Positions 47,872-52,769 are shown, numbered from the stretch's first letter. The stretch: 64,000 nt of DNA from an uncultured Planctomycetota bacterium (GCA_963849325.1 CAWKHF010000004.1:384001-448000), one strand, 5' to 3'. Made by a program: numbers and translations. Notes: generated by a model from the letters alone, not told the origin.

Positions 47872-49353
47872 GTGAACGACACTTCCGATTCCGTTGCGGT
47901 CCACGCGGCCCGGCCGACGCGCGTGCGGCACCTGGTCCTGGCGGCGCTGTGCGCCATTACGACCATCAACTACATCCAGCGCAACAGCCTCGGCGGCGCG
48001 GAGACGACGGTTCGCGCCGACCTCGAATTGACGAAACAAGACACCGGCGATGCGATGGGCGCCTTCTTCCTGACGTACGCCCTGTGTCAGGTGCCCAGCG
48101 GCTGGTTGGCCCAGCGCTGGGGCGGGCGACGCGCGTTGACGTGGTATGCGGCGGGCTGGTCGATCGTGATGGCGTTCACGGCCGCGGCCTCGAACTTGCC
48201 CGCCCTTATGAGTGCGCGCTGGGCGATGGGCGCCTTGCAGGCCGGCATTTTCCCCTGCTGCACGATGATCTTGGCCTCGTGGTATCCGGTCACGCGCCGC
48301 GGCTTCACCTCGGCCCTGCTCAACAGCTTCATGCTCAGCGGCGGCGTTCTCGCCTCCTGGATGACCGGCAAGCTGATCGGGCCACTGGGGTGGCGCTGGC
48401 TGTTCTTGCTGTATGCCCTGCCGGGCCTGGCGTGGGCCTACTGGTTCGCCCGATGGTTCCGCAATCGGCCCCAGGAGCATCCCTCGGTGAACCCAGCGGA
48501 GCTAGCGATCATTTCTCCGCGGACCGTCAACGTGCCGGCATCCAACGCCTTCGATTCCGGCCGGCCGGCCCAGAGCTTTGCCGACGCCGCGGAGCCAGAC
48601 GAAAGCATCGCGGCCAACCGAGAGGCGCTCTCGACCGAGCAATCCCCGAAGCCGCTCTGGGTTCGCGAGCGCGACGCCGAAGTCCGCGACCTGGTCCAGC
48701 GCAGTGCTGAAGCCGTCGATTCCCTGGGCCGCGATTTTCCTCAGTTCGGCGCTGTGGTTGATCTGCATCCAGCAATTCTGTCGATCCGGGCGCTGCGCTT
48801 CTTCGACATGTGGCTGCCAACCTACTTGCAGGAAGTGCGCGGTCAATCGGTGAAGGATGCCAATTATTTGACCAGTCTGCCGTTGTTAGCCGGCATGATC
48901 GGCGGTCCCGTCGGCGGCATTCTCTCCGATTTCGTGCTGGCGCGCACGAGAAGTCGCCGGGCCGCTCGGCAGGGCGTGGCCATCGGCGGCATCCTGGGGG
49001 GTCTGCTCGTCTACGTGCTGGCGTATCAAGTCTCGGACTTGACTGGGGCCGTGCTGCTCGCCTGCCTCGGCCTGTTCATCATGACGTTCTCCTCGCCCTG
49101 CGCGTATGCGCTGTCGATGGACATGGGCGGCCGCAATCTCGCGGTGATCTTCGCCATGATGAACATGGCCGGCAACCTGGGTTCGTGGGCCTTCACCAAG
49201 TTCGTTCCGCGCGTCGTGAACGGACGCGGCTGGGAGACTGCCCTGCTCATCTTCGCCGCCATGCACGTCGTCGCCATCGTCTGTTGGCTGCTGCTCAACC
49301 CTAACGGGATTATCGGCGAATCGGCCGACGCCATGACCGCTTCCAAGGAGTGA
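47872..49353 (+). CDS. MFS transporter (anion:cation symporter-like; internal frameshifts)
   Basis: INYIQR, QVPSGWLAQRWG, WFRNRP, WLPTYL. Confidence 0.85.
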   Translation: MNDTSDSVAVHAARPTRVRHLVLAALCAITTINYIQRNSLGGAETTVRADLELTKQDTGDAMGAFFLTYALCQVPSGWLAQRWGGRRALTWYAAGWSIVMAFTAAASNLPALMSARWAMGALQAGIFPCCTMILASWYPVTRRGFTSALLNSFMLSGGVLASWMTGKLIGPLGWRWLFLLYALPGLAWAYWFARWFRNRPQEHPSVNPAELAIISPRTVNVPASNAFDSGRPAQSFADAAEPDESIAANREALSTEQSPKPLWVRERDAEVRDLVQRSAEAVDSLGRDFPQFGAVVDLHPAILSIRALRFFDMWLPTYLQEVRGQSVKDANYLTSLPLLAGMIGGPVGGILSDFVLARTRSRRAARQGVAIGGILGGLLVYVLAYQVSDLTGAVLLACLGLFIMTFSSPCAYALSMDMGGRNLAVIFAMMNMAGNLGSWAFTKFVPRVVNGRGWETALLIFAAMHVVAIVCWLLLNPNGIIGESADAMTASKE

Positions 49354-49566
49354 ATATCAGGCTGGGCCAGTGGATCTGCTCTCTCGCGGGCGCTCTGGCC
49401 GCGATCTATCGTCTGGCCGGGGCCGCCGATCATTTGCAGCGCAAGTGATCCTCTTGCCCCGTGGAGAGAATCTTCGATTTTTGGTGAACCATTTGCCGCC
49501 GTCCGCGTCTATCCAATGTGTGAGGACGAGCGATCCCAGCAATGGATCGCGGAACCTGGTCCCGAG

Positions 49567-49671
49567 ATGACAATGCATAAGGATTGCGGATTACGAAGGA
49601 AGGACCAATCGGCCAGGCATCTGGCTGATCGATGGGCGAATGGCCTCCCCGCTCATCCTCCGCGCTGGTGA
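49567..49671 (+). CDS. Putative 34-aa leader peptide of the tRNA array
   Basis: MTMHKDCGLRRKDQSARHLADRWANGLPAHPPRW; contains a 12-nt segment complementary to the downstream terminator. Confidence 0.55.
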   Translation: MTMHKDCGLRRKDQSARHLADRWANGLPAHPPRW

Positions 49672-49701
49672 CACCAAGCTCCTTGGGAAAGGCGGCTTGC
49701 G

Positions 49702-49740
49702 AGGCCAGGTGTCACCACGAGATGCCTGGCCTTTTTGTTT
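49702..49740 (+). terminator. Intrinsic terminator immediately 5' of the first array tRNA
   Basis: AGGCCAGGTGTC-ACCACGA-GATGCCTGGCCT followed by TTTTGTTT. Confidence 0.75.
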
Positions 49741-49813
49741 GGGCTGGTAGCTGAGATGGTTGTAGCGGCGGTCTGAAGAACCGCAGACGAGGATTCGAGC
49801 GCCTCCCGGCCCA
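49741..49813 (+). tRNA. tRNA-Phe(GAA), atypical
   Basis: GGGCTGG/CCGGCCC acceptor stem; GCGGT-CTGAAGA-ACCGC anticodon arm. Confidence 0.75.
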
Positions 49814-49898
49814 CTCGGACAAATGGATTCGGTGTTCGGATCAGGAGAACAACCATGCCACAACTTTCTCGCTTCAAACGTCGCGCCCTCCCCTATTG

Positions 49899-49970
49899 GG
49901 GGTCGTGGCGTAAAGGCAGCGCACAAGTCTTTTAAACTTGGAGGTGTGGGTTCGACTCCCACCGGCCCCA
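49899..49970 (+). tRNA. tRNA-Lys(TTT)
   Basis: CAAGT-CTTTTAA-ACTTG; GGTTCGACTCC T-arm. Confidence 0.85.
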
Positions 49971-49995
49971 ATGCTCTGATGGACAGTGAATAGAC

Positions 49996-50067
49996 AAGTC
50001 CGAGGTGTTAGCGGCAGCATAACCGGCTCCAACCCGGACGGTGAGGGTTCAAGTCCCTCCGGACTTG
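49996..50067 (+). tRNA. tRNA-Trp(CCA)-like, A8
   Basis: AAGTCCG/CGGACTT acceptor stem; CCGG-CTCCAAC-CCGG. Confidence 0.7.
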
Positions 50068-50090
50068 CTGATGATTGCTTGGCGACCGAT

Positions 50091-50162
50091 GAGTCCAAGG
50101 TGTTAGCGGCAGCATTTTCGGCTCTTACCCGAACGGTGAGGGTTCAAGTCCCTCTGGGCTCA
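50091..50162 (+). tRNA. tRNA-Lys(CTT)-like, A8
   Basis: GAGTCCA/TGGGCTC acceptor stem; TTCGG-CTCTTAC-CCGAA. Confidence 0.72.
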
Positions 50163-50182
50163 CGGTTTGGATTGTCTTCGTG

Positions 50183-50255
50183 CAGCGTGTGGGGTAGCGG
50201 AGTGCCCGCCACCTCGGGAGGGTGGAGAACGCTGGTTCAAATCCAGCCACGCTGA
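50183..50255 (+). tRNA. tRNA-Pro(GGG), C33
   Basis: CAGCGTG/CACGCTG acceptor stem; CCACC-TCGGGAG-GGTGG. Confidence 0.75.
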
Positions 50256-50302
50256 CTGTAATCATTGGCCCTCCGCTTCGTATCAGAGGATGGAGAGATC
50301 GC

Positions 50303-50376
50303 CGAGGTGTGGGGTAGCGGGAGTGCCCGCCTGCTTCGGAGGCAGGAGAACGCTGGTTCAAGTCCAGCCACCTCGA
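50303..50376 (+). tRNA. tRNA-Pro(CGG)
   Basis: CGAGGTG/CACCTCG acceptor stem; CCTGC-TTCGGAG-GCAGG. Confidence 0.8.
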
Positions 50377-50428
50377 CTTCGCCGCCCGGGCCGACCGCCC
50401 ACGGCCCGGGCGGCTGGCAGGGGCGAAG

Positions 50429-50502
50429 GCCCAGCTGCGCCAAGCGGCAGAGCGACCCGGCTTAAACCCGAGTGGATGAGGGTTCGACTCCCTCGCTGGG
50501 CA
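50429..50502 (+). tRNA. tRNA-Leu(TAA)-like with a short variable region
   Basis: GCCCAGC/GCTGGGC acceptor stem; loop CTTAAAC. Confidence 0.72.
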
Positions 50503-50518
50503 ACGGCACGAATCCTAC

Positions 50519-50592
50519 GGCCTGCAAGCTCAAACAGTTCGAGCAGCCGGTTGTCAACCGGAAGGGTGCGGGTGCGAGTCCCGTGCGGGCCG
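50519..50592 (+). tRNA. tRNA-Asp(GTC), atypical T-loop
   Basis: GGCCTGC/GCGGGCC acceptor stem with G73; CCGG-TTGTCAA-CCGG; T-loop TGCGAGT. Confidence 0.72.
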
Positions 50593-50602
50593 CTGCAACG
50601 AT

Positions 50603-50678
50603 TGCGGAGTGGACTGGAGGCAGTTTCCAGCACGGTCTCATACGCCGTCCGACGCCGGTGCAACTCCGGCCTCCGCAA
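50603..50678 (+). tRNA. tRNA-Met/Ile2(CAT), atypical T-loop
   Basis: TGCGGAG/CTCCGCA acceptor stem; ACGGT-CTCATAC-GCCGT. Confidence 0.72.
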
Positions 50679-50695
50679 CTGATTTCGGGTAAGAG

Positions 50696-50774
50696 GGCCG
50701 AGTACGCAAATCCGGCAAAGCGGCCAGGTCGAGAGCCTGGTGATCGATTGCGGGTTCGACTCCCGCCTCGGCTA
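50696..50774 (+). tRNA. tRNA-Leu(GAG), C33 (the alternative register would give Ser CGA)
   Basis: GGCCGAG/CTCGGCT acceptor stem with A73; CCAGG-TCGAGAG-CCTGG. Confidence 0.7.
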
Positions 50775-50863
50775 CTGATGACAGAAGGATGTCCGCGGTC
50801 GGCAGGAAAGACAGGCCGGGCGCCCGCGCCGATTGTCGTCTGTCGCCGGCCCTTCTGCATCGT

Positions 50864-50936
50864 GGTCCCGTAGTTCAACGGCTTGAACACCCGGCCCACA
50901 TCCGGGGACGAGATGGTTCGACTCCATCCGGGATCA
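50864..50936 (+). tRNA. tRNA-Val(CAC), C33
   Basis: GGTCCCG/CGGGATC acceptor stem; CCCGG-CCCACAT-CCGGG. Confidence 0.75.
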
Positions 50937-50941
50937 CTGTC

Positions 50942-51012
50942 GGGTTGCTCGTCCAAGGGAAAGACGCCGGTATCGCAAGCCGGAAATCGGGGTTCAACTC
51001 CCCGGCGGTCCA
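50942..51012 (+). tRNA. tRNA-Ala(CGC)
   Basis: G3:U70 pair; CCGGT-ATCGCAA-GCCGG. Confidence 0.75.
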
Positions 51013-51020
51013 TTGACATG

Positions 51021-51091
51021 GGGCCTATCGTCCAACGGGAGGACGCCAGCTCGGCAGACTGAAAATCCGGGTTCAATCCCCGGTGGGTCCA
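51021..51091 (+). tRNA. tRNA-Ala(GGC), C33
   Basis: G3:U70 pair; loop TCGGCAG; weak anticodon stem. Confidence 0.68.
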
Positions 51092-51103
51092 CTCTCCCTT
51101 GTC

Positions 51104-51175
51104 ACCCCGATGGTGAAATGGACATCATCCCTCGCTTCGAACGAGACGTTCTGGGTTCGACTCCCGGTCGGGGTA
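51104..51175 (+). tRNA. tRNA-Arg(TCG)
   Basis: ACCCCGA/TCGGGGT acceptor stem; CTCG-CTTCGAA-CGAG. Confidence 0.8.
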
Positions 51176-51199
51176 ATTCCGTATTCTCCCCTCTCCTCC

Positions 51200-51672
51200 G
51201 GCCAGGAAGCCGCCCCCTGGTGGGGGAATAGCCCGCTTTGCTTCACGGCGTCCAGACCCTCCCGCAGTTCAGTCCGCAACCGACGCTCGATCTCTTCCTT
51301 GCGGGAGTCGTACCCAAAGATTGCCTCAGCGCGTGCGAGGGTCCACCACAGGGAGCGTTCCTCGGCGGATTCACCCGGATACTCGTCGAGATGAATGCGA
51401 TGGTTCGGGGGTCGCTCCTCGTTCAAGGCTCGCAAGGCGGCGGCGGCCTCCGGCAAGGACAAGCGCCCCTCGATCAAATCGACGACGACCGCTTCCATCG
51501 CCTTCGAGTTCGCCTGCACGAGTTCACCATCCTCCTGGAGACGTTCGCGGTCCTGGGCCGTCTGCCACCAGTCGGCGAAGGCTTGTCGGCCGTCAGTGGA
51601 CAAGGCGATGCCGGCGTACAGTACAATCGGCAGCGAGGCCGTGAGCGCGAGAAACCGGAATGCTACCGTCAT
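51200..51672 (-). CDS. Hypothetical protein with an N-terminal signal/TM segment (3' end uncertain)
   Basis: MTVAFRFLALTASLPIVLYAG...LIEGRLSLPEAAAALRALN. Confidence 0.55.
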
Positions 51673-52160
51673 TCTGCGTACCCCCAAAAAGGCAGCGGGG
51701 TCCGACCGTCATTCACCGCTATTCTGATAAACGGCCGAAAGAGCTGTTTGGAGACAGGGCAGGATGCGATTCTCCGCGCCGACGCGAAATGAACTCCGGA
51801 TGTCGAGCCGGTTGAGAGAGGAAGAGATGGTGAAAAAGGATGCGAGCGGAGGCGACAGAACGGCAATTGAACTTTTTATCGCCGGCATCCAGGGCTGGGA
51901 AGCCGGCTTGCGGCAGATTATCTCGGGGAAATCGAGCAGCGACACGCAATCGTAAATCATTGTGTGATCTTTGCTTCCGAACAGACTCTCGGCATGGAGG
52001 GCCGACCGCGCGGCAGTCTACCCAGAAATCGACTCTTACGAATCTCATCTCCCGCGCCGATTCCTCCAATCCGCTCATCCCCCTCTGATCGGCGTATTCG
52101 GCAGGACCATACCGCTCCTTTCCTCTTGCCGCCAGTACGAGACGGTACGAACATGAGGAT

Positions 52161-52769
52161 ATGGCCTTCCCCTGGTGGTTCCTCCTCGGTCTCAACCGCA
52201 TGAAACTCTTCTCCGCGATCCGTTGGGTTCTCCGCCTCCTCTTGCTGCCCCGCAGCCAACTCGTCCTGGAGAATCTGGCCCTGCGTCAACAACTGGCCAT
52301 CTTCAGCCGACAGCGGCCACGACCATCGCTGCGCCGCCGCGACCGACTCTTCTGGATCTGCCTATCGCGGTGGTACTCAGGGTGGCGCTCAGTATTGGTC
52401 CTCGTACAACCGGACACGGTCCTCCGCTGGCACCAGCAGGGCTTCCGTCTGTGGTGGCGCTGGAAGTCCCGGAGGAAGCGAGCGGGGCGTCCGCCGCTGG
52501 ACAAGGAAGTCCGTGACCTCATCGGCCGCATGGCTCGTGAAAACCCGACCTGGGGCGTTCCGCGTATCCGGGCCGAACTGCGCCTGCTGGGCCATGACGT
52601 CGCCGAAGCCACCGTGGCCAAGTATCGGCCGCAGCCACGTCATCCCAAGCCGCCGTCGCAGACCTGGCGGACATTCTTGAGGAACCACGCCGGCACGCTG
52701 GCTTCGATGGATTTATTCGTGGTGCCCACGATCACATTTGATCGGCTCTGCTTGCCCATCGCGTCGTAG
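52161..52769 (+). mobile_element. Truncated integrase-core (DDE) transposase remnant
   Basis: LENLALRQQL, VQPDTVLRWH, MARENPTWG.PRI, SQTWRTFLRNHA; breaks off after MDLFVVPTITF. Confidence 0.8.

Follow-up and report, generated by a model that had tools for sequence, protein, structure and literature searches.

In the leader-peptide attenuators of amino-acid operons (trpL, hisL, leuL, pheL) and of pheST, the codons of the leader correspond to the product of the operon. Here we describe a candidate attenuator of this kind in front of an array of transfer RNA (tRNA) genes. It lies in a 64,000-nucleotide (nt) stretch of DNA from an uncultured Planctomycetota bacterium (CAWKHF010000004.1:384001-448000, labelled G000:C4:384001-448000), which we call the window and in which all coordinates without a contig label are counted. 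The genome it belongs to comprises 8.16 Mb at 65% G+C, in an assembly that is 84.7% complete by markers. Our comparison with relatives suggests that this region is most plausibly an example of a widespread type of leader-peptide attenuator for tRNA arrays that follows the known principle of attenuation. We put the probability that a supernumerary tRNA array is controlled here by a ribosome-dependent transcription attenuator at about 0.65.

Like trpL-type attenuators, the locus appears to combine a short translated leader, an intrinsic terminator, a mutually exclusive antiterminator, codons related to the product, and read-through in response to a delayed ribosome. Unlike in those systems, the cargo consists of tRNA genes, and the codons are mixed, mirroring up to about 20 tRNAs without a run for any single amino acid. 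The stop codon lies within the antiterminator strand, there is no general 1:2 "protector" helix, and the C-terminal tail of the peptide is conserved. A second group of systems, ermC, cat, vmlR and other Term-seq riboregulators, induces a resistance gene when a drug-stalled ribosome sits on the leader. There, as is proposed here, the position of a ribosome on a short leader picks the RNA fold. Unlike in those systems, no dependence on a drug is indicated at our locus, and a ribosome that stalls at the conserved tail would keep the array repressed.

Leader-peptide attenuators of amino-acid operons are summarised in passages of PMC10274678, which also describe the upstream open reading frame (uORF) of whiB7 in mycobacteria. 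Efficient translation of this uORF leads to a rho-independent terminator, translation stress to an antiterminator, and the composition of the uORF decides which shortages are sensed (PMC10274678). Judging from these passages, our locus would share the same translation-dependent logic of terminator and antiterminator. The whiB7 cargo, in contrast, is a transcription factor, no sequence relation exists, and at our locus the composition tracks the tRNA set while the length of the reading frame is fixed.

In its cargo, a long supernumerary tRNA array, and in its proposed physiological logic, the locus resembles the L-array (trn operon) of Anabaena sp. PCC 7120. According to the main text of PMC8421152, that array is normally silent and is induced when translation is impaired. 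The same text lists Planctomycetes among the phyla with L-arrays, and the array in the window is an L-array in that sense: a long supernumerary set distinct from the housekeeping tRNAs. Its 13 genes follow each other head to tail, starting with tRNA-Phe at 49741. Twelve of the 13 anticodons also occur in a stand-alone gene elsewhere in the genome, at a mere 58–73% identity, and the Leu(taa) tRNA is found only in the array in this assembly. Control of the Anabaena array is attributed to direct repeats over the −10 box of a sigma-70 promoter and a presumed repressor, and the words "terminator" and "leader" do not occur in the main text of that paper (PMC8421152). The tandem 9-nt repeat motif of Anabaena, TGTWNWWNWNNWGTANYNWA, has no match in the window when up to one mismatch is allowed. 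Our full-text literature searches, which covered main texts, returned no attenuator or leader peptide described in front of tRNA genes or planctomycete arrays.

We propose the following mechanism. Transcription would start at a promoter resembling those of extracytoplasmic function (ECF) sigma factors (49485-49511), and the 32-codon open reading frame (ORF) of the leader (49573-49671) would be translated. A ribosome that arrives at the end of the ORF in time would cover the strand 49666-49675; the terminator (49701-49740) would then form and transcription would stop before tRNA-Phe. A ribosome delayed at codons −26 to −7, counted from the stop codon, would leave this strand free; the antiterminator would form and the polymerase would read into the array. 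The antiterminator would fold first because it is transcribed first, and without any translation the two-helix design predicts read-through. Since the codons in the body of the ORF are enriched for those read by the array, the element would measure the decoding of exactly these codons. It would thus gauge decoding capacity and provide negative feedback on tRNA supply: new tRNAs would speed up translation of the leader and bring termination back. A preliminary description of the locus had already proposed that normal translation of the leader leads to termination and delayed translation to read-through, and this logic fits the conserved geometry. Its broader claim of a leader ORF, a terminator and an alternative pairing in front of the array is supported as well; all three lie between a promoter-like motif and the first tRNA.

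The evidence for two competing helices comes from relatives. The strands 49666-49675 and 49708-49717 form a perfect 10-nt inverted repeat. On 38 aligned leaders 90.8% of the cells of this antiterminator helix are paired, and five pairs, or 19 cells, have changed on both sides. None of 500 shuffles reaches these values, and sliding the partner by one to three columns reduces the pairing to 20–48%. The helix was no part of the covariance model behind the alignment. For the terminator 97.4% of the cells are paired on 38 aligned rows, again with five pairs changed on both sides. One position in the 5' arm of the terminator, alignment column 78, covaries with both of its partners: it forms AU 20, GC 12, GU 2 and other combinations 4 times with the stop-side strand, and CG 12, UG 12 and UA 11 times with the 3' arm of the terminator. 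Within a single peptide family the antiterminator pair is A:U in leader L001 and G:C in L033 and L098, which implies more than one switch.

Folding leads to the same picture. In all 44 leaders the antiterminator is part of the minimum-energy fold of the nascent RNA (at least six of the ten stop-side bases paired with the 5' half of the terminator), where the folded span runs from 6 nt 5' of the stop to just before the 3' arm of the terminator. In the window it is the structure formed before the 3' arm exists (−26.0 kcal/mol). Once 49660-49740 is complete, the fold reaches −36.1 kcal/mol with the terminator forced and −27.4 kcal/mol with the antiterminator forced; the two states differ little in energy. 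When TGA is in the A site, a ribosome reaches about 15 nt past the P-site codon, so the entire strand 49666-49675 would be covered by a ribosome at the stop. The position of the stop codon inside the antiterminator strand hence fits control by ribosome position, given this general figure for the footprint. The spacer between the two antiterminator strands measures 29–36 nt in relatives, and the hairpin within it possibly serves pausing.

The preliminary description had placed the antiterminator elsewhere. It proposed that the strand 49611-49622 captures the 3' arm of the terminator (49720-49731) when a ribosome stalls at the rare-codon run GGA-TTA-CGA-AGG (49588-49599). Several of its observations are correct. 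The two strands are exact 12-nt complements, and the isolated duplex is indeed more stable than the terminator hairpin (−27.3 vs. −21.9 kcal/mol). The strand, GGCCAGGCATCT, is part of a 19-nt inverted repeat with 84% identity, and none of 300 leader shuffles yields an equally long run. The five closest leaders share the pairing at an identical position (−58 from the stop), the 12th pair being T:A in two of them and C:G in two. It is also present in the minimum-energy fold of 49600-49740 (−64.9 kcal/mol), nested around the other antiterminator. The four codons are rare as well: in 2301 codons from five Pfam-supported ORFs of the window, TTA occurs 1.3, AGG 2.6, GGA 8.3 and CGA 8.7 times per 1000. 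As had been stated, TTA and CGA are read by array tRNAs, namely tRNA-Leu(taa) and tRNA-Arg(tcg).

Nevertheless, we consider it very unlikely that this pairing is the antiterminator. First, it is conserved in only five of 37 leaders (L001, L002, L003, L023 and L024) and is not above shuffles in the other 32. Second, the strand sits inside a local hairpin of its own (49608-49629), and this hairpin accounts for the T-to-C change too. Third, the rare-codon run, the supposed stall site, is not kept even in the closest leaders L002, L003 and L004. Fourth, the helix abuts the U-tract. From what is generally known about intrinsic termination, such a helix should replace the terminator stem and promote termination, not abolish it; Yarnell and Roberts reportedly found in 1999 that an oligonucleotide paired to the 3' arm of a terminator can replace the 5' arm. 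The helix that competes with the terminator and is conserved is instead the one between 49666-49675 and 49708-49717. Covariation among the leaders of relatives, which had been suggested as a check, supports an antiterminator, with the strand around the stop codon as its partner in place of 49611-49622. One could speculate that in the clade of the window the latter strand acts as a second 5' arm that terminates untranslated transcripts, the opposite of an antiterminator.

The second result that bears on a ribosome-dependent attenuator is the match between leader codons and array tRNAs. We call a codon readable if at least one anticodon in the array can pair with it by the standard rules of wobble, and we scored codons −31 to −6 of 39 leaders that have a TGA stop and at least five tRNAs. 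The readable fraction is 0.543 for a leader's own array, compared to 0.358 and 0.336 in frames +1 and +2. Permuted pairs of leaders and arrays yield 0.380 (standard deviation 0.015), and none of 2000 permutations reaches the value for own arrays. When leaders from other genomes are scored on the same array the fraction is 0.376, and the own leader scores higher in 35 of 39 cases. What had been noticed for two codons of the window is thus a general and statistically robust property of these leaders; the leader of the window itself has 15 readable codons out of 26.

One could suspect that the match reflects nothing but base composition. Four controls argue against such an artefact. First, flanking protein-coding frames show no match (0.389 for the own array vs. 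0.387 for permuted arrays), and the leader exceeds its flank at 21 of 25 loci. Second, the excess is confined to codons −26 to −4 (0.52–0.64 vs. 0.36–0.40) and does not appear in the 5' untranslated region (UTR; 0.35 vs. 0.36–0.37), in the first five codons (0.38 vs. 0.34) or after the stop (0.37 vs. 0.34). Third, when the leaders are grouped into 25 peptide clusters, the mean excess is 0.17 and 23 clusters are positive (sign test, p = 2e-5). Fourth, in genomes with two leader-array pairs a leader matches its own array better than the other one in eight of ten comparisons, with values of 0.92 and 0.0 in one genome. In the leader family MSRTLNQITERQYVVRLGGQRLCRLLVYRLRL the amino acids used after the start codon are exactly those that have a tRNA in its array. 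The match is found mainly at the level of amino acids (0.742 vs. 0.54), with a smaller contribution from codon choice (0.777 vs. 0.705).

The terminator itself is where the preliminary description had put it, directly before tRNA-Phe. The hairpin has 13 pairs (seven of them G-C) and a loop of seven, is followed by TTTTTGTTT, and ends one base before the tRNA gene. Its energy when folded alone is given above; the median over 44 leaders is −23.8 kcal/mol. Transcription presumably terminates here. Seen in isolation the window would not be convincing: a generic terminator scan of 48500-52500 finds three sites where 3.1 are expected, and the fold of the whole leader reaches merely z = −1.8. For this reason our case rests on relatives. 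A DNA search found leaders with about 80% identity in three genomes, and the hairpin alone before different tRNA arrays too. We also built a covariance model that spans the leader's 3' part, with the stop codon at one end and the U-tract at the other. It identifies one strong copy in the window's own genome; within the order, 36 genomes out of 151 (30 of 60 genera) have matches. Real copies are also present in three of six genomes of another family in the same class. Weak matches outside the class (L059-L064) were plain terminators without tRNAs and were discarded, as were L045, L128, L129 and L130. In a renewed search with longer flanks, 45 of 48 places (in 37 genomes) precede an array of 1–30 tRNAs; the three places without an array are the weakest matches and lack the TGA.

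At these 45 places the layout is the same: an ECF-like motif, a Shine-Dalgarno (SD)-like site and an ATG, an ORF of about 32 codons, the strand that contains the stop, the terminator with its U-tract, and the array. It is from this comparison that the motif, the SD-like site, the ORF, both helices, the array and the codon-tRNA match emerge as parts of one element. In 18 of the 45 places no more than 5 nt separate the end of the model from the first tRNA, and in 33 no more than 30 nt, too little for a second promoter. Control of such arrays by a leader-peptide attenuator with codons that reflect the array's own tRNAs appears to extend over a whole class of planctomycetes.

Another explanation would be that there is no regulation at all. 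The hairpin could merely terminate a small independent gene or insulate the array from the gene 5' of the leader, and the array could be silent or transcribed by other means. That upstream gene does exist (it encodes a transporter of the major facilitator superfamily, MFS, and ends at 49353), and a chance-level terminator count is what one would expect under this explanation. It is nonetheless highly improbable, because the hairpin travels with arrays at unrelated loci, where it lies downstream of an array-specific promoter motif and often within 5 nt of the first tRNA (the 18 places above). In addition, a plain terminator needs no covarying competing helix, and in L007 and L009 the promoter motif is fused directly to tRNA-Phe.

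Translation of the leader ORF, on which a ribosome-dependent attenuator depends, is likely for several reasons. In the window there are in-frame ATGs at 49516 (51 amino acids), 49567 and 49573, and the TGA lies at 49669-49671. The 34-codon ORF of the preliminary description starts at 49567; its frame is open to the TGA as described, but the conserved start is 49573, which gives 32 codons, because L002 has a TAG at the position of 49567. We rejected the 51-codon form, since relatives have stops right behind the equivalent ATG, and also a match of this form to DUF4780, which with an E value of 0.047 is below the cut-off of that family and at chance level. An SD-like triplet is found at −15 to −5 of the ATG in 32 of 39 leaders, in contrast to 10 of 39 in a control 30 nt upstream, and 35 of 44 leaders have an ATG 30–34 codons 5' of the stop. 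Of 45 leaders, 44 use TGA as the stop, and in 41 of these 44 the next base is C. The leader frame stays open for a median of 59 codons, compared to 27 and 33 in the other two frames.

Over most of its length the peptide is free to change, with codon-position differences of 36/36/42 in the closest group. Its tail, commonly [H/Y]-P-L-R-L, is kept at the level of amino acids: 21 of 36 leaders have Pro at −4 (CCG 6, CCT 5, CCC 5, CCA 5), 26 have Leu at −3 in five different codons, and 25 have Arg at −2 in four different codons. Searches of Pfam and NCBIfam with the leader peptides returned no family. UGA followed by C is a weak stop context, and the tail [H/Y]-P-L-R-L-UGA-C probably holds the ribosome in place on the antiterminator strand and prolongs its occupancy. 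If so, the tail may be a new motif for pausing at termination. An 8-bp hairpin (49631-49657, codons −13 to −4) lies within the ORF and is kept in the closest relatives; part of the conservation of the peptide segment ANGLPAHP could therefore act at the RNA level.

The conserved tail also invites a different explanation, namely that the leader encodes an arrest peptide on which a small molecule or an antibiotic stalls the ribosome near the UGA and thereby sets termination, the codon match being secondary. The freedom of synonymous codons in the tail, the weak stop context, and the fixed length of about 32 residues, which is roughly the length of the ribosomal exit tunnel, would all fit such a sensor. 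So would R-L-R in some tails, a motif known from macrolide arrest. We regard this explanation as unlikely. The antiterminator strand would be hidden by a ribosome stalled at the tail and the array would be shut off, which would be an odd answer to an inhibitor of translation. It also leaves the lineage-specific match between codons and tRNAs in the body of the ORF unexplained, and the tail motif fits merely 24 of 44 leaders.

Finally, the leader RNA could sense a tRNA or a protein directly, like a T-box or a protein-dependent attenuator, with the ORF being incidental. T-boxes bind uncharged tRNA without a leader peptide and control synthetase or amino-acid genes; what they share with our locus is a terminator/antiterminator switch that reports tRNA status. 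That the cargo is tRNA and that several hairpins are kept within clades could be taken as support for direct sensing. The Rfam model of the T-box, with its specifier loop and T-box sequence, has no match in 48000-52500 at E values up to 1. An Rfam scan of the same region at the same threshold yields only tRNAs and chance-level matches, none of them to a family on the leader (49354-49740). Moreover, the SD-like site, the ATG, the length of the ORF, the restriction of the codon match to the reading frame and the conserved tail all favour translation, which makes direct sensing extremely unlikely.

The proposed attenuator would be transcribed from the motif TGAACC-N15-CGTCTA. This motif has a single match in the window where 0.01 are expected. 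With a spacing of N15 or N16 it precedes all four arrays of the genome, and of five strict matches in the 8.16 Mb four lie directly upstream of tRNA arrays. In five other genomes it is not commoner than a control with the reversed pattern (24 vs. 29 matches); eight of these 24 matches have a tRNA on the + strand within 400 nt downstream. The consensus of ECF-sigma promoters contains AAC in the −35 and CGT in the −10 element at a spacing of about 16 nt, and we take the AAC...CGT form of the array motif to be a resemblance to such promoters. By eye, a housekeeping tRNA cluster carries the sigma-70-like TTGCAA-N17-TATACT instead. The motif would act as a promoter, with transcription predicted to start at about 49517-49520, just 5' of the 5'-UTR hairpin; similar hairpins are seen by eye, uncounted, at the equivalent place in relatives. 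Table 1 lists the features of the region.

Table 1. Features of the leader and the tRNA array (positions in the window)
Feature	Position	Strand	Basis
Promoter-like motif TGAACC-N15-CGTCTA (ECF-sigma-like −35/−10), preceded by a T-run	49485..49511	+	Motif scan
5'-UTR hairpin GCGATCC...GGATCGC	49530..49550	+	RNA folds
Shine-Dalgarno-like GAGA, 6 nt 5' of ATG 49573	49564..49567	+	Count of SD-like triplets in leaders
Predicted leader ORF, 32 codons + TGA, MHKDCGLRRKDQSARHLADRWANGLPAHPPRW*	49573..49671	+	Comparison with relatives
"Antiterminator" strand of the preliminary description, GGCCAGGCATCT, exact complement of 49720-49731	49611..49622	+	Inverted repeat
Antiterminator 5' strand TGGTGACACC: last sense codon, TGA (49669-49671), 4 nt	49666..49675	+	Inverted repeat, covariation
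Spacer hairpin between antiterminator strands	49675..49699	+	Folds
Predicted intrinsic terminator: stem 49701-49733, U-tract to 49740	49701..49740	+	Terminator scan, fold, alignment
Antiterminator 3' strand GGTGTCACCA: upper 5' arm and loop of terminator	49708..49717	+	Inverted repeat, covariation
tRNA array, 13 genes: Phe, Lys, Trp, Lys, Pro, Pro, Leu, Asp, Leu, Val, Ala, Ala, Arg	49741..51175	+	

Several results weigh against a codon-reading attenuator or limit its reach. First, the codon match is not universal: four of the 39 leaders are not above the control, two of the 25 clusters are negative, and a cluster of four leaders (L092, L095, L096 and L032) has almost no excess (+0.02). Since the match lies mostly at the level of amino acids, the sensing of amino acids and that of tRNAs are inseparable by sequence alone. 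Second, the layout has gaps. Five of 44 leaders have no ATG at 24–40 codons, and the tail pattern x-[PR]-L-[RH]-x fits just 24 of 44, the other 20 having no tail motif. Third, three other arrays in the window's own genome have the promoter motif without a leader ORF or a terminator. Together with the fusions of motif and tRNA in L007 and L009, these motif-only arrays mean that the leader is an optional module. Fourth, promoter function, translation, termination, the direction of control and the parking of ribosomes are all predictions from the DNA. Fifth, a search of sequencing runs gave shares of just 0.06–0.21, in runs from soil and rhizosphere, and of four runs compared with the window the two of raw RNA reads contain no read on it.

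Two metatranscriptomes yield 4 and 18 contig pieces on the window. Most of these are 90–95% alike and thus come from relatives. Among the contigs from RNA libraries (runs X15 and X16; window 49692-49817) a relative's hairpin, U-tract and tRNA-Phe lie on one piece. Such contigs would fit read-through transcripts; they could also stem from DNA carry-over, and the ends of an RNA cannot be read from a contig.

Many phyla have supernumerary tRNA arrays. The one studied case, Anabaena, is a switch at the level of the promoter according to the main text of PMC8421152. If confirmed, the element described here would be, as far as our literature searches show, the first attenuator that controls tRNA genes, and it would link the speed of decoding directly to the supply of tRNAs. 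One could go further and see in it a circuit of tRNA homeostasis, composed of an alternative-sigma promoter, about 25 body codons that are a readout of the downstream tRNAs, an arrest-like tail, and three-state logic in the clade of the window. Loss of or damage to tRNAs (by anticodon nucleases, stress or drugs) would be sensed codon by codon and repaired through read-through. As in trp, untranslated transcripts would terminate, a ribosome stalled in the body would cause read-through, and a ribosome at the stop would again cause termination. This extended version is tentative, and we would give it somewhat less than even odds.

Further observations concern the promoter motif. In the three other arrays of the genome (C1:515629-516263, C12:838476-839602 and C5:1105955-1106278) it lies 40–60 nt from the first tRNA, whereas in three genomes of this genus the orthologous Gln-first arrays come with the leader (L017, L018 and L019). 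Syntenic variants 3' of the same MFS gene, L007 (genome G003) and L009/L071 (G007:C4:15738-15764), have the motif fused almost directly to tRNA-Phe. The ORF and the terminator are missing in both, and L009 keeps the first 40 nt or so of the leader. The fifth strict copy of the motif (G000:C1:332168-332194; L052 1669-1695) is located 15 nt 5' of an ATG in the region of ribosomal protein L1, an assignment based on Pfam Ribosomal_L1 (E value 6e-28, L052:2076-2633). The array promoter motif may mark a small regulon related to translation. A hunt for a regulon or its sigma factor with a looser motif gave 35 matches. Most of them fall within long open frames of this genome with its 65% G+C, no sigma gene that might regulate itself stood out, and we dropped this line.

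About 1 kb 3' of the array, on the + strand, the ORF 52161-52769 matches HTH_32 and HTH_21, transposase-like N-terminal domains, below the Pfam cut-offs. The four ORFs downstream of it match no Pfam family.

Other observations concern the tRNAs themselves. Besides tRNA-Leu(taa) (window 50429-50502), tRNA-Leu(caa) (G000:C1:516042-516115) is found only inside arrays in this assembly. The Leu(taa) gene is 74 nt long and hence has no long variable arm. At leader positions −1 and −3, TTG, which Leu(caa) decodes, is used more often than any other codon. Elsewhere in the genome ARAGORN calls a "tRNA-Stop (tta)" and a tRNA-SeC (G000:C2:189639-189710 and C6:239940-240031). In arrays of other genomes ARAGORN reports irregular anticodon loops, "???ggta" (a four-base anticodon) in two genomes and "???ac" in one, at L100 (G157), L102 (G016) and L123 (G157); these genes are possibly odd or degenerate tRNAs within arrays.

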